This document shows, one piece after another, positions 41,357-49,522 of a stretch of 64,000 nucleotides of DNA. The notes beneath the pieces are model-generated. The model had not been told where the DNA came from. It worked only from the letters and a program-made list of their open reading frames with translations, and did no database searches. Origin of the DNA: Dictyostelium discoideum (Eukaryota); the NCBI GenBank assembly GCA_000004695.1, contig CM000152.2, positions 5,728,001-5,792,000 of the forward strand, read 5' to 3'. Position numbers and translations under genes: made by a program. Numbering within the stretch: position 1 is the first letter of the stretch; the number at the start of each line of letters is the position of its first letter.

Positions 41357-41425
41357 TTATTGGACAACACAATGACATCCCCCACCTAACCCCTAAGATA
41401 AAAATAGATTTTTGAATTGTATTAG

Positions 41426-41469
<44 letters not shown>

Positions 41470-41836
41470 ACATACACATATGTCGCAACCTCCTCCACAA
41501 CCACCTTCAAGGTCATACATCATTCTAATATCGGAATTTTCAGAAACTTTAAAGTTTGATAATTTCTTTTTGTCATACTTTGTTGTTAATTTCTTTTTGT
41601 CCATTTCAATCTAAAAAAAAAAAAAAAAAAAAAAGAAAAAAAAATTTTAATTAGTATAATTATTGATTAAAATTATTTTTAATATTTAATAAAATATAAT
41701 ACAATTTGGTTATGAATTGGAGTTCCGGTTTTATCAAAAATTAGGCTCTTGAGGTCATGGATTGATGTTTTTTCTGGATTTAAATCAAACTCTACGGTTT
41801 GATTTTCATTATTTGGTAAATGGCAATTAACTTTCA
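41357..41836 (-). CDS. ubiquitin-fold plus Cys-rich tail plus CaaX protein, paralog C, 3 exons (41702..41836, 41476..41610, 41357..41392), 101 aa
   Basis: MKVNCHLPNNENQTVEFDLNPEKTSIHDLKSLIFDKTGTPIHNQI | IEMDKKKLTTKYDKKKLSNFKVSENSDIRMMYDLEGGCGGGCDIC | GLGGGCHCVVQ*. Donors GTATTA and GTATGT; acceptors TTTTAG and CTTAG. Confidence 0.7.
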
Positions 41837-42546
41837 TTTTTTTATTTGTTTAAATTTATTATTCTTTATCTAATATTTTTTTATAAGTATGTAACAAATT
41901 TTTTGTTTTTTTAAAAAAAAATATTTGTATTTTTATTTTAATTTATATTTTTTTTTTTTTTTTTTATATTTTTAAAAAAAACCATTTTTTGACCTGTTCC
42001 CTAAATTATAAATAAAAAATAATCTATATTGTCATTTATAGTATTTTATTAAAAAAAAATTTAGATGTGTAAACCATTCTGTTTAAATTAATTGGTTTTT
42101 TTTTTTTTTTTTTAATTATTTTTTTTTTTTAACAAAACTATTAAAAAATGAAACATTACCATTGCAATTTTAATTTTAGTTTTTTTTATTTTTCCTAACA
42201 ATTCAAGTAAATTCTAAAAAATATAATAAATTAAGAAAAGGAAACTGGTTTTATGAGAATAAAAAAAAAACTATCCATTATTTTATTTTATTTTCATTAA
42301 TGTTTAAATTTTAAAAAAAATAAAAAAAGTGAAAATGGAAATATTATTTTATGAATAATTTAAAGTAACTGAGAAAAAAAAATAAAAAAAAAAAAAAATA
42401 GATGAAACACAAAAAATTAAAAAGACAAAAATAAAATAATAATAAATTGTATAATTTTAGGAATAACTTTAATTTCAATACGAAATAAAAAATTATGTAA
42501 TTTTTATTTATTTTTTATATATATAGTTAAATAGGTTTTATTTTTA

Positions 42547-42936
42547 TAGACTTTTTTTATAGAATTTGGCATGAGCAACCACTTGCTACACCACCACCTC
42601 CTTCTAATGAATAAACCATTCTTAACTAATATTTAAATATTAGTATAAATTTTAAAATTAATATTAAAAAAAAAAAAAAAAAAAAAATATATATATATAC
42701 ATATATATATATTTTAAGAATAATAATTACACTTGAGTTTTCTGCTAAATGTAATTTTGATAATTTTTTATTATCATATCTATTTGATAATCTTTTTGTA
42801 TCAAATTCAATTACTTGATTTGAAACAGGTGTACCAGTTTTATAATAAATTATATTTTTTAAATCATTAATGGTGGTTTCTTTTGGATCCAAACCTTCAA
42901 ATTGGATAATCTCTTTTGTACTTGGAAATTGACAAT
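42547..42936 (-). CDS. ubiquitin-fold plus Cys-rich tail plus CaaX protein, paralog D, 2 exons (42721..42936, 42547..42615), 94 aa
   Basis: MKVHCQFPSTKEIIQFEGLDPKETTINDLKNIIYYKTGTPVSNQVIEFDTKRLSNRYDNKKLSKLHLAENSS | LRMVYSLEGGGGVASGCSCQIL*. Donor GTAATT, acceptor ATTAG. Exon 1 is the ORF-track entry listed as 42626..42946; the displayed numbering places it 10 nt lower and I used the displayed numbering. Confidence 0.65.
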
Positions 42937-43650
42937 GAACTTTCATTTTTTTTATTTTTTTATTTTTAAATTTTATTTTATGTAGGTGAAAGCTATTTAG
43001 AGATTTTAAATAATTAAAAAATTATTTATTATTATTACTATTATTTCAAAATGATTTAAGTGAATAGAAGAATTAAAAAAAAAAATAAAAAAATAAAAAA
43101 GTATTTATAGGATCAAAATTATTAAAAGAAAAATTGACCCGGTCCTCCCATTAATTCTAAAAAAGGAAAAAAAAGAGACCCGTTCAAATTTTTAAAAAAA
43201 AAAAAAATAAAAAAAAAAAAAAATTAAAAATAAAAAATTAAAAAAAAAAATTAAAAAAATAAAAAATTTTAGATCTAAGATTTTCAAAATTTTGTTTTTA
43301 TATTTATCTTTTTTATAATTATTTGAAGATCTTGTTATTGTAGATTATAACATGTATAAACTATTTAGTTTCTATTCTTTTTTTTTTTTTTTTTTTTTTA
43401 TCCAAATTTTCAGAGGGTTTAAAAAAAAAAAAAAAAAGTTTTTATTAATTTAACACATACTTAAAAATTTAAAAATAAGGTAGTATCATAAGATCTACAC
43501 CGAAAAAAATCTTAAAGTAAAAAATACTTTACATAATTTTTATTATTAATTCTTTTTTTAAACACTTTATTTATTATTTTTTTTTTTTTAAAACCTTTTT
43601 TTTTTTTTTTTTTTTTTTTTTTGATTCTACTAAAATTAACTTTTTAAAAA

Positions 43651-44053
43651 CTATAAAATTTGACATACGCATTCACCACCACCAAAACCACATAAATCAC
43701 ATTCACAACAAGACCCACCCAAATCATATAAAATTCTAATATTTGTTGACTCTATAACTTTGAATTTTTTTAATTTAAATTTATCATGTTTTTGAGACAA
43801 TTTTTTATTATTTAATTCGATCTATATAATTTTAAATAAAATAAAATTAAAATCTTTTAATTTTAAATAAAATAAAATTAAAATCTTTTTAAAAAAAAAA
43901 ACTAATAATTTAAACACTTACAATTTGCATATCTATTGGTATTTTTTCTTTTTCATATATAAAACTTTTTAAAATATAAATAGTTGGATCAATTTGTCCA
44001 TTCATATCAAATTCTAATATTTTATCTGTTGGTAGTAAACATTTAATAATCAT
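43651..44053 (-). CDS. ubiquitin-fold plus Cys-rich tail plus CaaX protein, paralog E, 2 exons (43922..44053, 43651..43821), 100 aa
   Basis: MIIKCLLPTDKILEFDMNGQIDPTIYILKSFIYEKEKIPIDMQI | IELNNKKLSQKHDKFKLKKFKVIESTNIRILYDLGGSCCECDLCGFGGGECVCQIL*. Donor GTAAGT(43921), acceptor TATAG(43822). Confidence 0.7.
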
Positions 44054-44422
44054 TTTTTCAAACTTATTTAAATTTTAATTGGAAAAATAGAAATTTTAAA
44101 AATATTAAAACAAAATAATTAGTAACAATAAAATAAACAAAAAAAAAAATAAATAATAATAATAATAATAATATTAATAAATAATAAATAAAAAATTTTT
44201 TAAAAATTAATTGAAAAATAAATTAAAATATTATAATAAAATTAATTAATAAAAAAAAGTAAAAAATAAACAATACAATAAACAAAACCCACAAACATTA
44301 TTATCTAATAATTCCATGTATAGTATTTCGAAAGTGGGTAGTAGGTTTCTTTAAAATTATATTAAGTATATATATATGTATTTTTTTTTTTTTTTTTTTT
44401 TTTTTAAAATTTTTCTTTTTAT

Positions 44423-44457
<35 letters not shown>

Positions 44458-44492
44458 TTAAATTATAATATTATATATTGTTTTGAAATTGT

Positions 44493-44774
44493 TTATTTCT
44501 TTTTCTTCATAGCTTGTTTACCTTGACCTTTCTTAATTTCTGGTTTACCTCTTTGTTGATCTCTTTCACGAGTTTCTACCTTTGTGAGTGCTTTATCATC
44601 TGTATTACCAATCATATGTCTTGAAATTAATGGTTTTGAATAATATTGAGTTAAATAATCACCAATTAATGGTTTTCTAAGATATTTTAAACCCATATTT
44701 GGACTACCTTCTGGTCTAAATCCAAAAATTCTTAATGATGCTGAATATGCACTTTGTAATTGTCTTGCAATCAT
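44493..44774 (-). CDS. mrps33: mitochondrial ribosomal protein S33 (MRP-S33 family) homolog, single exon
   Basis: 93-aa ORF. LQSAYSASLRIFGFRP...KYLRKPL and the basic tail KKGQGKQAMKKKK parallel human MRPS33 (SEYAFRMSRLSARLFGE...KKGEGKRAAKRK). Confidence 0.6.
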   Translation of the reverse strand: MIARQLQSAYSASLRIFGFRPEGSPNMGLKYLRKPLIGDYLTQYYSKPLISRHMIGNTDDKALTKVETRERDQQRGKPEIKKGQGKQAMKKKK

Positions 44775-45377
44775 TTTTTATTTATATATTTATATGTACA
44801 AAGAATTTCTTTATATATATATATATATAATAAAATATAATTTTATTATAAAATTGATGAATTTTAATAAATATATTGATAATGATATTGATAGTGATAT
44901 TGATAATGATATTGATAAATTAAGGTATTATTATTATTTATAATTAATCTATTAGTATACTGTATGAATTTTGAGTTTTTCTGAATAAACTGCTACTATG
45001 GTATAAAATGATAATTAATAATAATAAAATTTAATAAAAACCTACCTAATATAGAATTTAAAAAAAAAAAAAAAAATACAAAATATTTGTGTTATTATTA
45101 TTATAATTTAGAAAAAAAAAAAAAGTTATACAAAAAATTGGTTTGATCAATATTTTTCGTTTCAAAAAAAAAAAAAATTTAAAAAAAAAAAATAAAAAAT
45201 AAAAAAAAAAAAAATAAAAATAAAAAATGTGAAAATAAAAAAAAAATAAAAAATAAAAAATTTCATATGAAATTCTGTCTTTGTCGTTTTTGGAAATAAA
45301 CAAAAAATTGTAAAATGATTTTTAATTTTTTTTCTAAACACTTTTTTTTTTTTTTTCCATATAAAAAGCTCTAAATA

Positions 45378-46178
45378 CTATTCATCTTTATTTCTATTTA
45401 TATTTAAATTATTAGGATTTTTTGAAGATTCCATTGCATCTAATACCACATTTAGTGAGGTTGAAGCAACTAACATTTTTTTAATTTCAATTAAATCCTC
45501 TTCATCTAAATCACATTCACCAGTACGTTTATTTTTAAATATTTCTTTTAAAAGTAATTCAAAACCTTCATCTGTAAGATCTTTATATGAAAATTTATCA
45601 TCCTCTATAATATCTTCATTCTTTGATTTTAAAATTACTGGTTTTATACTTGACTCTTCTTCAACTGTTATATCTTCATTTAAAAAATTTCTTTCCATTT
45701 TATTTTGGTGACTTTCTAATTCTTGGTCTAAACTATTATAATAATAATTATTTATTATTTTAAAATTTAAATTTTAATACTAATGTGGGAAAATAGTAAT
45801 ATTATTATAATCATAATTATGTTACATTATTTCCCAATCTTCATCTGTAAATTTCACAGGTCGATAAGAATTTTTTGAAATTTTTTTTTTTGTAAGATCT
45901 TCAACTACTGAACTATGATATTTTCCTTTAAATGGTTGATTATTTCTCATTCTATATTCATGATCTCTTTTGGCTTGAATATTTTCTATTGTTTCTCCAT
46001 ATTCCTCTTCATCATCATCGTCATCAAATATATTTCTTGATTTACCATAAAAACGTTTTTTATTATTATTATAATTATTATTATTAACTGAATATATATT
46101 TATATTAAAAGAGGTAATTATATTTTTAAAAACATCTTTAATTATTAATCTATTATTATTATTACAAATTTTAATCAT
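45378..46178 (-). CDS. acidic hypothetical protein, 2 exons (45826..46178, 45378..45732) joined via a non-canonical GTAACA donor, about 235 aa
   Basis: ORFs 45822..46178 and 45378..45698 become one frame (…FTDEDWEI-I-LDQELESHQNKMERNF…) if the donor is AT|GTAACA (45825) and the acceptor ATAATAG| (45733), phase 2. They may instead be two separate genes. Confidence 0.4.
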
Positions 46179-46277
46179 TTTTTTATTTTTTTATTTTTTT
46201 TTTTTTTTTTAATTTTCGTTTTAATCAAAAAAAAAAAATAAAAAAAAAAATAATTTTTATCCAACTTTTTTGATTTT

Positions 46278-46327
<50 letters not shown>

Positions 46328-46332
46328 AAACT

Positions 46333-46364
<32 letters not shown>

Positions 46365-46365
<1 letters not shown>

Positions 46366-46968
46366 TGGCACAAAATAATAATAATAATAATAATAATGAA
46401 ACAGATACAGAAAAAGTTGAAAGATTAAAAAAAAAAATTGAAAAAATTAAAGAAGATAGAATTGAAAATGAAAATAGTTTAAAAGATTTACGACTATCAT
46501 CTAGACCAACATATTTAGCTGGTGGTATATTTGGCGCAGCTGCAATTTATTATAATTTAAAAAAAAAATCAAAATTAGCAAAATTTTCATTATTATCATC
46601 TGGTTTAATTGTTTTTTCTGGGTAAATAAATAAATAATAGATAAAATAAAATAAATAAATTAAAATTTTTTTTTTTTTTTACTAATCAATATGAAATAAA
46701 AAATAATAAAATAAATAGTCATTTAATTGATCGTGGTGAGGAGAAATTTGGAACAATTTTAGCAGGTGGTGTATCAGCAATTTTATCAGGAACAACTATA
46801 GCAAGTGGATTTAAAAATAAAAAAATATTACCATTGGCATTAGGAACTGTTGCTGTTGCATCAATGAGTTATCATGGTTTCTTTTCATTATATAATAGTT
46901 TGGATCAAGTTAAAGAATTAATTGATACTCATGATGAAAATGTAAAAATTATAAAACAACAAAAATAA
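46365..46968 (+). CDS. small multi-pass membrane protein (TMEM14-like GxxxG-rich), 2 exons (46365..46621, 46719..46968), about 168 aa
   Basis: Donor G|GTAAAT at 46622 (phase 2) and acceptor AAATAG| at 46718 extend ORF 46365..46625 into ...IVFSG-HLIDRGEEKFGTILAGGVSAILSGTTIASGF...ALGTVAVASMSYHGFFSLYNSLDQVKELIDTHDENVKIIKQQK*. Confidence 0.55.
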
Positions 46969-47151
46969 TAATAATAATAAAAATGAAATTATATAAAGAA
47001 AAACAATAATACATATATATTTATTTTAAAATTTTTTTTATTTTTTTTAAAAAAAAGATATTATAATAGTGGTAATAGTAATAATAGTAATAATAATATG
47101 ATAATATGATAATATACAAATTATGTATATGTAATTTTTTTTTTTTTTTTT

Positions 47152-48981
47152 TTAATTTGCTAATTTAAAAGTAGTTTCTTCACAACCATATGCTTTTGGT
47201 GATAATTGAATTAAAGTATGTAATGGAATATTAATGAAGGGGCATTCTTCTTTAACTCTACCTTTGAGATAAGAATAGAGACAACGAAGAGTGGCTTGAT
47301 GAGAAACGATTAGGACTGGTGATTTAGTTCTTTCCAATTCTAATAATAGAGGTTCAAGACGTTGAATTACATCTTCATAACTTTCACCTCTTGGATAACG
47401 ATATTGAAGTTTATCAGAATCACGAGCAGCCCTTTCATCTGGCATTTTCTCTTGAATTTCTTCATAGGTCATACCATCGCAAACACCAGCATCAATTTCA
47501 TCCAATGCTCTCATTACAACCTTTGGTTGAGAGATATATTGAGCTGTACGAATTGCACGTTTCAAACTTGAGGTCCATACCACAACTTCACCATCGTAGC
47601 CGTCAGCACGGACTTTTGAACACCATTCACTAATCCAAACGGCCAATTGGTGGGCGTAGTTATCGCCACGTTCAGTGAGGTCGCTGTCGCCACCAATACG
47701 ATTTTGGGCGTTGAACTCGCTCTCGCCCTGACGGGTCAACCAGATGGGACGGGGGTGGAGGTTGGAGGTTCATGAGGAAGAACACCACCCTGCTTGGTAT
47801 GTACCCGGTGATGTTATTCACCTCGATCTTCTTGCCAACATCGAATAGCTTTATGTAGCGAGTTTTCTCGCCCTCCACAGTCTCATACACTTTTAGATAA
47901 TGATTGATTCTATCACGAAAGTCTTGCACGGCCTTGGAGGGATCCACACCCTGGTAATCGGGTGACAATAGTTTGGTCTCCTTAATGTTATGTTCGATCA
48001 CTGATGCATCATTACAAATTGATTCTACATAAACCACAGTCATCTTTTCACGAGTGCATCTTTTCTCTACTAATTGTCTTCTCTCGTTGGTGGAGTTGGT
48101 CGCATCGTAAATACCAACCCTACCACCGTTATGCAACCATGATATCATGTCGTCCAATGCCGCAACTGCCATATGCAATCTCGCCTTTATACCCTCTGGA
48201 TTATGTGGATCAAAGAAGTCATGTGGTTGTCCTGCACCAATTCTTAATCTTCTATATTCTCCAACATTAAACACCTTGGCTGGTACTAACATCCAATTTA
48301 ACATTCTACATATCTTTCTTGCAACATATGTTTTACCTCTTGCTGGTAATCCAACCATTACTAAAACTATCTTTTCTTTATCTAATCCTGTATAACCTTG
48401 TGATCTTTTTTTTGTATCTTCATCTTTTTAAAAATATAAAAAAAAAAAAAAAAATTAATTAATAATCTTTTTTTTTTTTTTTTTTTTTTTTTTCTTTTTT
48501 TTCTCTCTCTCTCTCTCTCTCTCCTACAACTTACTATACTCATGTCTAATTAATAATTCTTGATGTTCTTTTATATCATTAACATCAATAACTTGTTGTT
48601 CTTTATTTGTACCTTTATCAATTATAAGGAATTGAATATCAACATCTTTTGGAAATTCTGGAAACTTTTGTAAAAATAAAAATTTTAAATCTTCAACAGA
48701 AATACCTTTAAAATATGCTTTTTTAACTCTATCTTTAACTCTAAAAAATATTTCTCTACTATTTGGTATTGACGATGATGATGTTGTTGTTGTTGATGGT
48801 GTTGGTGAATTTACATTATAATTATTATTGTCATTATTATTATTTATATTAAAATTATTACCATATCTATTTGAAGAAGGTGATGATGACCCTGCTATAT
48901 TACTCCCAGGTGGTGATGAAGATGGTGATGATTTCGGTATTGAATAATTTGATTCATCATGGTCATTATGATTATTATCTA
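47152..48981 (-). CDS. 6-phosphofructo-2-kinase/fructose-2,6-bisphosphatase homolog with an upstream PB1-like exon; two exons resolved (48535..48981, 47152..48423), initiator exon not found; contains a frameshift
   Basis: 6PF2K Walker A VMVGLPARGKTYVARKICRMLNWMLVPAKVFNVGEYRR. The bisphosphatase part (LHPRPIWLTRQGESEFNAQNRIGGDSDLTERG...) sits in the other frame (ORF 47152..47739). Upstream exon ...REIFFRVKDRVKKAYFKGISVEDLKFLFLQKFPEFPKDVDIQFLIIDKG...ELLIRHEY has donor A|GTAAGT (48534) and acceptor AAAAAG| (48424), phase 1, reading straight into ...N-EDTKKRSQGYTGLDKEKIVLVMVGLPARGKT. Confidence 0.7.
47755..47768. repeat. 7-bp tandem duplication (top gtggagg/ttggagg; minus CCTCCAA/CCTCCAC) causing a +1 frameshift in the PFKFB homolog
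   Basis: Deleting one 7-mer restores ...FFLMN-LHPRPIWLTRQGESE..., which is continuous with both flanking ORFs. Confidence 0.7.
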
Positions 48982-49522
48982 CTGTTATTTGCGTTGTAAA
49001 TATATTATTTTATGATATTGATTTATGCATTTTATAATTTTTTTTTGTATAGCTGTTTTTTTTTTTATATTTTATATTTTTAATTTTATTTTTATTTTTA
49101 TTTTAATTATTTTTAGTACTATTTTACATTAAGGGAAAAAAAAAGTTTTTTTTTTTTTTTAAATTTGGTTAATTTTTTTAAAAATCAAAATTTAAATTTA
49201 TTTAAATTTCTTTTTTTTTTTTTTACTTTATTTCACAACAAAACTTTTATTAGAAAAAAAAAAAAAAAAAAAATTGAAATTTCAAAAATTTTATAAAAAA
49301 AAAAAAATAACCCCTAGAATAAAAAAAAAAAATAAAAAATAAATAAAAAATAAAAAAAAAAAAAAATATCCTGCATCACACCACACTAACAAAACATTTT
49401 TTTTTTTAATTTTTTGTTAATTTTCATTTTTTTTAATTTTTTTTTTTTAATTTTTTTTTTTATTTTATTTTTTTTTCATTTTTCCCCCATCCATTTGATT
49501 TGAAGATTGGATATAATAGGAA

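Follow-up and report, generated by a model that had tools for sequence, protein, structure and literature searches.

A conserved PFKFB gene of Dictyostelium discoideum with clustered private differences in the reference sequence and a local GC3 island

We analysed the gene DDB_G0282759, which lies on the minus strand of a window of 64,000 nucleotides (the whole stretch of DNA under study) in the D. discoideum AX4 reference. Our results suggest that an intact gene for a bifunctional PFKFB enzyme is disfigured here by errors in the reference, and that its central part carries a real GC-rich island whose likeliest cause is GC-biased gene conversion (gBGC). We give this combined reading a probability of about 0.65.

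The predicted protein matches the AX4 protein DDB_G0282759 at 100% and is 91% identical to a D. firmibasis protein of 587 aa. Pfam searches detected the kinase domain 6PF2K (PF01591, E = 2.3e-77, profile positions 8-221 of 223), in which the Walker A motif GLPARGKT is present, and the phosphatase domain His_Phos_1 (PF00300, E = 3.8e-35). The latter was recovered after removal of a single base, and lies in another frame as written in the window. An alignment with human PFKFB3 (4d4j/2axn) extended over residues 179-581 (E = 1e-116). The initial annotation had called the gene a PFKFB homolog, and the two profile matches bear this out. By these similarities, the locus appears to be the D. discoideum ortholog of the conserved amoebozoan bifunctional 6-phosphofructo-2-kinase/fructose-2,6-bisphosphatase, with enzyme activity as a prediction. 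A literature search on DDB_G0282759 and on Dictyostelium fructose-2,6-bisphosphate found nothing. The features of the locus are as follows.

49391..49397, minus strand: first exon of the annotated AX4 model, 7 nt long (ATGTTTT); it works around the TAA by giving the model a start codon upstream of it.
49028..49030, minus strand: ancestral start codon ATG (MHKSIS...), colinear with the protein starts of D. firmibasis, D. citrinum, D. dimigraforme and other D. discoideum sources.
49010..49012, minus strand: in-frame TAA at codon 7, where every other source has TCA (Ser); at 49011 the window has A, whereas L002, L009, L010, L008 and L001 have C.
48535..49030, minus strand: exon 1, a Ser/Asn-rich low-complexity leader followed by a beta-grasp module; its translation is colinear with orthologs of 578-596 aa.
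48536..48781, minus strand: module with a ubiquitin-like beta-grasp fold; its relative in Pfam is the N-terminal part of AIP3.
48424..48534, minus strand: intron (GTAAGT...AG, 111 nt, 16% GC); one intron at this place reproduces every ortholog protein.
47152..48423, minus strand: exon 2, with 6PF2K at about 48388..47760, His_Phos_1 at about 47745..47179 (Pfam matches and human PFKFB3 alignment) and the stop codon TAA at 47154..47152.
47584..48217, minus strand: GC3 island spanning codons 235-445; GC3 peaks at 0.87 around 47794..47704 (codon and ortholog comparison).
47834, minus strand: synonymous difference private to the window, GGC against GGG, GGA or GGT.
47757..47770, minus strand: apparent 7-bp tandem repeat (AACCTCC twice), which is the ancestral CTCCAC CTCCAC (Leu-His-Leu-His) plus one extra A and gives a +1 frameshift (Tandem Repeats Finder and comparison with other sources).
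47728..47730, minus strand: CAG (Gln) in place of CAT, the catalytic phosphohistidine codon of the RHG motif; at 47728 the window has G, whereas L002, L009, L010 and L003-L006 have T.
47630..47888, minus strand: 259-nt 'intron' of the AX4 model (53% GC), by which the gene finder got round the frameshift at the cost of the domain junction, RHG included.

According to the ortholog comparison, the true gene should consist of two exons and encode about 588 aa, arranged as leader, AIP3-N-like beta-grasp module, 6PF2K and His_Phos_1. The codon at the exon join is split as A|AT (Asn), exon 2 begins at 48423, and the intron carries a (GA)n and poly-A/poly-T tract and differs in length by 9 bp from the near-identical chromosome L002. 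An upstream exon at 48535..48981 had been proposed to splice in phase through GTAAGT...AG. This exon is real: it reads in frame, and the junction 48534/48424 fits the ortholog proteins. It contains no Met, as had been noted, but the further 5' exon postulated for that reason is not required. The same frame runs on from 48981 to the ATG at 49030..49028, 16 codons upstream, where the orthologs begin; it is broken solely by the TAA at 49012..49010. A missing 5' exon is ruled out by this open reading frame, and DNA similarity to D. firmibasis collapses directly upstream of the ATG.

The annotated AX4 gene model differs from this structure. Exons at 49397-49391, 48981-48535, 48423-47889 and 47629-47152 reproduce the annotated protein (P0002) exactly, and its MFL start was found in no ortholog. 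Judged against the orthologs, the official model of 488 aa is wrong: it leaves out the genuine start, the last part of the kinase domain and the active site with RHG, and the real product would be about 588 aa. Users of the AX4 annotation in metabolism, proteomics and knock-out work are thus working with a distorted gene.

We then considered the N-terminal module. It had been described as a beta-grasp/PB1-like module and as no standard feature of PFK-2/FBPase-2 enzymes. The beta-grasp fold shared with PB1 domains is present, whereas membership of the PB1 family is not supported: the Pfam PB1 profile gave no match at E <= 1, and AIP3 was the sole profile match in this module. Among 31 homologous PFKFB N-termini, 24 matched the N-terminal part of Pfam AIP3 (PF03915, best E = 1.7e-14). 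The window copy covered the first ~70 of 406 profile positions (E = 0.003-0.007, 15.9-17.1 bits), below the gathering cut-off of 31.6 bits. The N-terminal extension occurs in both dictyostelid paralogs and in homologs from Physarum, Planoprotostelium and Balamuthia, so that it is usual in the amoebozoan clade and the description as non-standard does not hold there. The beta-grasp module itself is standard in amoebozoan PFKFBs. A protein search with the low-complexity N-terminus as query gave no match. The N-terminal region of AIP3 (Bud6/Aip3 family) is the nearest profile relative of the module, and the ubiquitin-like regulatory domains that can be set beside it are the PKD ULD, the Ras-binding domains of plexin, ELMO and SHANK, and PB1. 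By speculation, its role may be dimerisation, GTPase docking or partner docking. Its conservation suggests a clade-specific regulation of fructose-2,6-bisphosphate signalling.

Three features disable the gene as it is written in the window. The initial annotation had reported one of them, a frameshift that it ascribed to a tandem duplication of a 7-bp unit. The repeat and the frameshift are in the sequence; Tandem Repeats Finder reported a perfect period-7 repeat at 47756..47770, and the kinase frame reaches a stop at 47674..47672 while the phosphatase domain goes on in the +1 frame. Duplication as the origin did not survive comparison. Deleting 7 bp leaves the junction two residues short of all orthologs and human PFKFB3, whereas deleting one A (one of 47763/47762) restores CTC CAC CTC CAC exactly. 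At this site CTCCACCTCCAC is found in L002, L009 and L010 and likewise in the Logan contigs L003-L006. The spacing N-L-H-x-x-P-R was found in 16 of 16 orthologs and conspecifics, and human PFKFB3 has equal spacing (NIHVQPR against NLHLHPR). The 7-bp repeat is therefore a by-product of a pre-existing 6-bp Leu-His/Leu-His repeat plus one base. A missing C in the C5 run, with LQPPPRP as the predicted reading, is ruled out by the conspecific DNA, in which the extra base is seen to be A.

Two more lesions had been overlooked, the TAA at codon 7 and the change of the catalytic RHG to RQG; all orthologs and human PFKFB3 have RHGES at the latter site. The window also holds private missense differences in exon 1, with Gly against Ala elsewhere at 48891-48890 and Gly against Ser elsewhere at 48862.

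We compared the gene with L002 (GCA_054883475.1), a D. discoideum chromosome almost identical to the window, with five further assemblies from the species complex and with four Logan contigs (7 samples). None of these 6 other D. discoideum-complex assemblies and 4 Logan contigs carries any of the lesions. Against L002 and the Logan contigs, the lesions and the other window-private sites are the sole differences in gene DNA, and no lesion interrupts the proteins P0121, P0123, P0124, P0128 and P0129. At the end of the Logan contigs stands A23-24, in place of the A19+TTACAT of the genome, which indicates that they derive from polyadenylated RNA and that the intact allele is transcribed. Exact look-ups of allele-specific products gave none for the frameshifted allele and none for the guessed intact exon-1 product either, and are therefore weak evidence.

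The distribution of the private differences was highly uneven. When events were polarised with L009 and L010, 12 were private to the window and 1 to L002 (binomial p = 0.003). The density of differences was about 3.7/kb in the gene against about 0.3/kb elsewhere. Within the gene they fall in two tight clusters, at 49011-48862 and 47834-47728, and one cluster sits right on the GC-richest 100 bp. The private substitutions comprise 8 transversions and 2 transitions, with zero G:C>A:T changes, although the mutational bias of D. discoideum is GC>AT (PMC8321536). Four of the five private coding substitution events change the protein (one is the stop codon), and one frameshift is added to them. Such a pattern is what unselected errors or mutations would give. 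Selection on the gene in the species looks very different: on the D. discoideum branch the core has 38 synonymous and 2 nonsynonymous changes, with no sign of the relaxed constraint of a pseudogene, and the catalytic domains are identical across the lineages of the complex despite a third-position divergence of 12-34%. These comparisons indicate a gene that is intact and under strong purifying selection in the species.

The three disabling features and three other point differences are thus probably base-calling errors in a low-quality Sanger patch of AX4 at about 41.4-49.2 kb. The initial annotation had left the choice between a very recent pseudogene and an assembly or sequencing error; because the lesions are private to this sequence, the error option is the better supported and the pseudogene the less so. 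Saxer et al. (2012) found 1,916 discrepancies between the reference and AX4 that were common to resequenced lines, and ascribed them to reference errors or clone differences (PMC3466296). The PFKFB differences are like these in being private, clustered and transversion-rich, but they disable one gene three times and have distorted its official model. About 8 kb of the reference probably needs correction.

It is improbable, though conceivable, that the lesions are real and that the AX4 (or AX3/AX4) laboratory lineage holds a very recently inactivated allele while other strains are intact. The window and the annotated AX4 protein have all private variants in common, three disabling changes in one gene have the look of a decaying pseudogene, and the intact sources are not established as AX4. 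A paralog (the P0030 cluster) could moreover cover the kinase function. However, a pseudogene cannot outpace its neutral flanks, and differences are about 10 times as dense here as in the unique sequence around the gene, while the neighbouring gene and intergenic DNA in the ~8-kb patch bear similar private changes. Neither spontaneous nor nitrosoguanidine mutation matches the transversion-rich spectrum, and an inactivated allele also fails to account for the 12:1 branch asymmetry or for intact polyadenylated transcripts of the matching haplotype in 7 samples. The mutation rate of about 3e-11/site/generation (PMC3466296) is far below what 12 changes per 8 kb in laboratory history would need. 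That programmed ribosomal frameshifting decodes the +1 shift and keeps the gene functional as written can practically be dismissed: the shift does sit in a C-rich stretch rich in Pro codons, but no conspecific or ortholog has it, and the same allele has a stop at codon 7 and is without the catalytic His.

The second part of our reading concerns base composition. The core of the main exon had been described as GC-rich and atypical in its codons, and windowed GC3 and codon usage do set it apart from the other genes of the window. The highest 200-bp GC content of the 64-kb window is 0.56, at 47591..47790 (mean 0.215, 99th percentile 0.425, next peak 0.445). GC3 is 0.53 over core codons 235-445 and 0.87 in the peak of 30 codons. 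By comparison, the 17 other long ORFs in the window have values of 0.075-0.235, the neighbouring genes about 0.12 and sister species 0.13-0.43. From the background to the core, usage rises from 1% to 57% for CCC, 1% to 27% for GCG, 4% to 50% for GTG, 2% to 27% for AGC and 6% to 36% for GGC.

The island is identical in all NC4-type D. discoideum sources save three window-private sites, and it is weak or absent in D. citrinum, D. dimigraforme, D. firmibasis and D. purpureum. For codons 379-408, D. discoideum has a GC3 of 0.77-0.80, the two 'cf. discoideum' lineages have 0.60 and 0.40, and those four species have 0.17-0.30.

We counted changes toward G/C (W>S) and away from it (S>W) within the D. 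discoideum complex. The ratio was 75:8 in the core and 29:10 in the flanks of the gene. W>S changes per codon were 0.355 in the core and 0.077 in the flanks (~4.6-fold, Poisson p ~ 1e-26), with S>W rates about equal, and within the complex third positions had diverged 2-5 times as much in the core as in the flanks. On the D. discoideum branch the ratio in the core was 37:2, in contrast to 4:5 and 7:6 on the sister branches, and 38 of 40 core changes were synonymous where scored. On the D. discoideum branch the neighbouring Med1-like gene shows only 9 W>S changes within 2 kb. The changes in the island form nested sets: 18 are common to four lineages, 16 to three and 17 to two, and lineage-private ones are added to these. 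From this alignment, the core emerges as a segment of about 630 bp in which the complex fixed A/T>G/C changes ~4.6 times faster than in the flanks, and in which such changes came stepwise over successive lineage splits and are still accumulating.

Transitions make up about 90% of the W>S changes; the D. discoideum branch has 25 T>C and 10 A>G, against 2 A>C. At four-fold sites, W>S transversions (~8) are barely above W>W transversions (~6), and this predominance of transitions also fits a transition-specific mutational process.

The island could be caused by a long-lived local hotspot of gBGC, in which recombination-associated repair favouring G/C would raise GC3 in the core. We regard this as the most likely cause, with odds a little short of even. 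The more specific proposal, that a sharply localised and long-lived hotspot within PFKFB drove GC3 from about 0.25 to about 0.85 over some 630 bp, is put forward still more tentatively. The local W>S excess with an accelerated rate (75:8 against 29:10) is as expected of gBGC. Non-preferred GC-ending codons are strongly enriched in the island, which is wholly coding and holds no non-coding sites. Many of the changes are toward near-unused codons (GGC, CCC, GCG, GTG, AGC), which argues against translational selection. Genome-wide tests in D. discoideum found no signal of gBGC (PMC8321536).

Selection on synonymous sites is an unlikely but not negligible alternative to gBGC. The island may be kept for mRNA stability, for translation kinetics at the domain junction, or for an element acting at the DNA level, in nucleosome positioning or as an internal regulatory element, whose origin lies in the D. 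discoideum complex. The change is directional, persists over several splits and stays within some 630 bp, with the kinase/phosphatase junction at the centre. Roughly half of the changes make C-ending two-fold codons (AAC, GAC, TAC, CAC, ATC, TTC), which Sharp and Devine reportedly found in 1989 to be favoured in highly expressed Dictyostelium genes. However, the other half make near-absent codons (GGC, GGG, CCC, GCG, GTG, AGC, GAG) and displace the usual GGT, CCA and GAA, and the preferred codons of D. discoideum are reported as not GC-rich (PMC8321536). The predicted RNA folding of the island is no better than that of shuffled sequences (z = -0.87), Rfam and tRNA searches of the island gave no match, and no long overlapping ORF was found in it; RNA structure, ncRNA, tRNA and an overlapping ORF were accordingly rejected as its cause. 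Sister species also keep the same protein without the island.

A somewhat less probable alternative is that mutation and not fixation is biased, through a local process favouring A:T>G:C transitions such as recurrent rounds of error-prone repair synthesis, or damaged bases at a site that is fragile or subject to transcription-replication conflict. Both the share of transitions among W>S changes and the raised third-position divergence of the core would follow from it. But we know of no local mutator of this kind in Dictyostelium, and the genome-wide mutation bias is strongly opposite. The transition excess is also partly forced, as a synonymous change at a two-fold site has to be a transition and the protein is under strong constraint, and a bell-shaped profile is what conversion tracts around a hotspot typically give.

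A foreign origin of the segment, or conversion from a GC-richer donor gene, was raised in the initial annotation and is largely refuted. The segment is a compositional outlier in an AT-rich genome, and GC-rich myxobacterial homologs with 55-59% identity exist. Nevertheless, the core protein is near-identical to those of D. citrinum, D. firmibasis and D. dimigraforme and has the residues specific to the clade (NAQNRIGG, SKVRADGY) in common with them. GC3 rises in a graded way from cf. discoideum Z through Y to D. discoideum, with lineage-private additions and no sharp-edged single block, and the paralog, only ~52% identical, cannot serve as donor. The conserved protein and the nested, stepwise rise within the complex together rule this origin out as a working explanation.

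Whatever its cause, the GC3 island offers a clean and datable natural experiment, with related lineages at successive stages of W>S change in an AT-mutation-biased genome reported to be without gBGC. If the gBGC hotspot is true, it would be the first locus-level evidence of gBGC, and hence of a stable recombination-initiation site, in a Spo11-less organism of 22% GC, and would mean that strong local gBGC can hide beneath genome-wide averages. An island that marks a recombination or conversion hotspot would also give a handle on where recombination starts without Spo11.

Among known enzymes, animal PFKFB1-4 (human PFKFB3, PDB 2AXN/4D4J; rat testis, 1BIF) likewise have an N-terminal 6PF2K with GLPARGKT and a C-terminal histidine phosphatase with RHGE, at equal junction spacing. 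The amoebozoan protein differs from them by about 170 additional N-terminal residues (leader and beta-grasp) that are without counterpart in the solved structures, and the window copy differs further in reading RQG and in being interrupted. A second dictyostelid PFKFB paralog (P0030 of D. firmibasis, P0025 of Cavenderia, P0051 of Acytostelium) has the same architecture including the N-terminal module, at ~52% identity, but it has RSGES where the gene under study, the RHG-bearing copy, has RHGES. By analogy with known PFKFB enzymes, this paralog, having lost the phosphohistidine, should be without bisphosphatase activity.

For the island, the systems to compare are the gBGC hotspots of mammals, birds and yeast. 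The PFKFB island differs from them in lying in a 22% GC genome without a genome-wide gBGC signal (PMC8321536), inside an exon and not a promoter, and in persisting across several lineage splits. In common with those hotspots, it has a sub-kilobase, bell-shaped rise of GC3 with a strong W>S excess, accelerated substitution and indifference to codon preference.

We found, in a window with an overall GC content of 21.5%, a PFKFB gene at the following position:

47152-49030, minus strand, PFKFB gene

Its conceptual product matches Pfam 6PF2K (E=2.3e-77) and His_Phos_1 (E=3.8e-35). Database searches showed 100% identity over the covered parts with P0002, the protein of D. discoideum AX4 (DDB_G0282759, 488 aa), 91% identity with the D. 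firmibasis ortholog P0001 (587 aa), and 81-86% identity with orthologs from Polysphondylium, Cavenderia, Tieghemostelium, Acytostelium and Heterostelium. By these matches, the window either is the AX4 reference or has the same sequence. The domain matches and the AX4 and D. firmibasis orthologs bear out the initial annotation as a PFKFB homolog; this is a conserved amoebozoan PFKFB of the ordinary kind.

Some observations concern its relatives. A second dictyostelid paralog (P0030, P0025, P0051) has the same N-terminal module, with RSGES in place of RHGES, and presumably, judging from this motif, retains kinase activity only. Bifunctional myxobacterial homologs of about 420 aa (P0045-P0056, P0080, P0092 and others, from Sorangium, Polyangium, Minicystis and Byssovorax) share 55-59% identity with the catalytic core of the amoebozoan enzymes, about as much as non-dictyostelid amoebozoan homologs do; this closeness suggests transfer between soil eukaryotes and Polyangiales. 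The Cavenderia fasciculata model P0004 (729 aa) has a GINS Psf2 domain (PF25005, Sld5) at its N-terminus and is probably two adjacent genes fused by annotation.

The upstream exon proposed at 48535..48981 is present and in frame, and is spliced to exon 2 (from 48423) through a 111-nt GTAAGT...AG intron (48534..48424). A further 5' exon had been thought missing. In a DNA alignment with the D. firmibasis locus, however, similarity starts exactly at the ATG at 49030..49028; therefore, no exon is missing, and exon 1 itself reaches 16 codons further upstream than its earlier start. Upstream of this ATG lies an A/T-rich spacer that is unalignable with D. firmibasis. The D. firmibasis gene starts ATG CAT AAA TCA ATG TCA TCA AAT... 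(MHKSMSSN), and the window ATG CAT AAA TCA ATA TCA TAA AAT..., in which the TAA at codon 7 (49012..49010) breaks the frame.

The annotated AX4 model consists of four minus-strand exons, which together reproduce P0002 exactly:

49397-49391, first exon (ATGTTTT)
48981-48535, second exon
48423-47889, third exon
47629-47152, fourth exon

The model intron at 47630..47888 (259 nt) has 53% GC, against 16% in the real intron. It and the 7-nt exon (49391..49397) are devices by which the gene finder got around the stop codon and a frameshift. Because the false intron cuts out the RHG motif along with the last part of the kinase domain, the official gene model is distorted, and the 488-aa database protein has neither the true N-terminus nor the RHG active-site region.

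At the domain junction, Tandem Repeats Finder reported a perfect period-7 repeat (47756..47770), and the reading frame switches at the same place, as had been noticed. The junction is LMNLH[LI][HI]PRPIWLTRHGESEF in every ortholog, and human PFKFB3 has the same spacing. The window sequence, CTC CA[A] CCT CCA C, carries one A more than the ancestral CTC CAC CTC CAC (Leu-His-Leu-His). What looked like a "7-bp duplication" (AACCTCC AACCTCC) is thus a by-product of this older 6-bp repeat plus a +1 insertion. Removal of one 7-bp copy was rejected: the protein would end up two residues short. In place of the catalytic RHG (CAT or CAC) found in all others, the window has RQG (CAG).

We compared the gene with L002, a 6.43-Mb D. 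discoideum chromosome (GCA_054883475.1) that carries the window haplotype and is 99.3% identical over 22 kb, and with all four Logan contigs where they overlap. Nearly all differences between L002 and the window are homopolymer lengths or lie within AT-rich low-complexity runs. Within the gene, only the following sites differ.

Differences in the PFKFB gene between the window and L002 with the overlapping Logan contigs ("others")
49011: window A, others C; TAA stop vs TCA Ser
48891-48890: window GG, others CA; Gly vs Ala
48862: window G, others A; Gly vs Ser
48424..48534 (intron): simple repeat 9 bp longer in the window; non-coding
47834: window C, others G; synonymous
47763/47762: extra A in the window; +1 frameshift
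47728: window G, others T; Gln vs catalytic His

The intronic difference from L002 lies in a tract (48466..48523) of (GA)11 and then long runs of A and of T. The Logan contigs finish with 23-24 A at a point where the genome reads A19 and then TTACAT; therefore, they derive from polyadenylated RNA, and the intact allele is thus transcribed. They cover about 48462..47133 and start within the intron (ATTAAT T17 ATATTTTTAAAAAG), not spliced to exon 1, which could reflect intron retention, an internal start, or assembly breakage at simple repeats. At 90%, P0001 clusters with intact, full-length proteins of two further D. discoideum assemblies (P0124, P0121), of two assemblies each for "D. cf. discoideum" and D. 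citrinum, and of D. dimigraforme and D. purpureum; P0129, a 401-aa product of Logan-assembled sequencing runs, belongs to the same cluster.

Two more distant D. discoideum strains, L009 and L010, served to polarize all differences from L002 that lie in unique sequence of the window. Private events numbered 12 in the window and 1 in L002 (binomial p=0.003). All those of the window fall within 41.4-49.2 kb, the sites outside the gene being 49168, 45726, 45708, 44976, 42096 and 41426; no window-private point difference from these three was found in unique sequence at 49.4-59.1 kb. Two of them, 45726 and 45708, are missense changes 18 bp apart in the adjacent gene (E>D, Q>H). Within PFKFB, the events form two tight clusters, 49011-48862 and 47834-47728, the latter coinciding with the GC-richest 100 bp. 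L009 and L010 (ACTFIW), both labelled D. discoideum, depart from the NC4-type haplotype at 54 of about 1,770 PFKFB coding positions (~3%), about as far as the two "D. cf. discoideum" assemblies do; the name D. discoideum appears to cover several deep lineages.

Between the recent pseudogene and the sequencing error initially offered, these private, clustered, 12:1 differences favour error. We put at roughly 0.75 the probability that base-calling errors, in a part of the 2005 Sanger reference with poor coverage, account for the lesions; 41400..49200 has the look of a low-quality stretch. Saxer et al. saw 1,916 departures from the reference common to AX4-derived lines, and ascribed them to reference errors or clone differences (PMC3466296). 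That the sequenced AX4 clone alone carries a genuine lesion is improbable. A pseudogene cannot evolve faster than neutral flanks, and the density of private events is ~3.7 per kb in the gene vs ~0.3 per kb elsewhere. The private events comprise 8 transversions, 2 transitions and single-base insertions, and none is a G:C>A:T change. A genuine lesion also does not fit the mutation rate of 2.9e-11 per site per generation and the AT-directed mutation bias of D. discoideum (PMC3466296; PMC8321536). Exact look-ups of frameshifted-allele products gave nothing, which is weak evidence because the guessed intact exon-1 product was likewise absent. The catalytic domains are protein-identical across the D. 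discoideum complex despite 12-34% core third-position divergence, and the core has 38 synonymous vs 2 nonsynonymous changes on the D. discoideum branch. Such conservation clearly points to a gene kept functional by the species.

The GC-rich, codon-atypical core is real and lineage-specific, and is the one surprising feature that survives scrutiny. GC over 200 bp reaches 0.56, the top of the whole 64 kb (99th percentile 0.425, next peak 0.445), and the 30-codon GC3 profile peaks at 0.87, against 0.075-0.235 in other window ORFs. The window, L002 and the Logan contigs agree throughout the core except at three private sites; the core is no artefact and is not peculiar to AX4. GC3 by lineage was taken from codon alignments of ten sequences.

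GC3 of codons 379-408
D. discoideum: 0.77-0.80
D. cf. discoideum, lineage Y: 0.60
D. citrinum: 0.27
D. dimigraforme: 0.17
D. firmibasis: 0.20
D. purpureum: 0.30

Changes in the D. discoideum complex were scored against four outgroups. Codons 235-445 gained 75 A/T to G/C (W>S) and 8 reverse (S>W) changes, and the other 377 codons 29 and 10. Per codon, W>S is 4.6-fold higher in the core (0.355) than in the flanks (0.077; Poisson p about 1e-26), and S>W is similar (0.038 and 0.027); over 2 kb of the adjacent Med1-like gene, only 9 W>S changes were scored on the same branch. The W>S changes of PFKFB form a nested series (18 in all four lineages, 16 in three, 17 in the two D. discoideum strains, 2-8 private to each lineage); therefore, the process spans several splits and still runs.

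Accelerated, bell-shaped, W>S-only change that is indifferent to codon preference is what GC-biased gene conversion at a stable hotspot classically leaves behind. Such a hotspot could have produced the ~630-bp bell-shaped island, and we rank this cause first, at slightly less than even odds. Caveats include that ~90% of the changes are transitions, that the island has no non-coding sites, and that no signal of GC-biased gene conversion was found genome-wide in this 22% GC genome (PMC8321536). An earlier survey reported a correlation of −0.94 between GC and chromosome size over six chromosomes (PMC5635611). Behind gene conversion, selection on synonymous sites is unlikely. About half of the changes replace GGT, CCA or GAA with codons nearly unused in the genome (GGC, GGG, CCC, GCG, GTG, AGC, GAG), which disfavours translational selection. 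In the island, RNA structure gave no signal (z=-0.87), Rfam and tRNA searches were negative, and a long overlapping ORF is absent. A local A:T>G:C transition-biased mutational process is rated a little lower still. A foreign donor, also raised initially, is excluded because the protein is near-unchanged, clade-specific residues are kept and the rise is graded. The island merits genome-wide and population-level follow-up.

The N-terminal module had been described as a beta-grasp/PB1-like extension. Beta-grasp stands; PB1 does not, as Pfam gave no PB1 match. The window module matches AIP3 positions 1-67 weakly (E=0.003-0.007, below cut-off), and AIP3 matches occur in 24 of 31 homologs (best E 1.7e-14). 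We know of no characterization of the amoebozoan module; dimerization or partner docking is our guess at its role. Since it occurs in both dictyostelid paralogs and in Physarum, Planoprotostelium and Balamuthia homologs, transcript-derived sequences included, it is typical for Amoebozoa. It is non-standard, as had been claimed, only in comparison with the solved PFKFB structures, all of which are without it.
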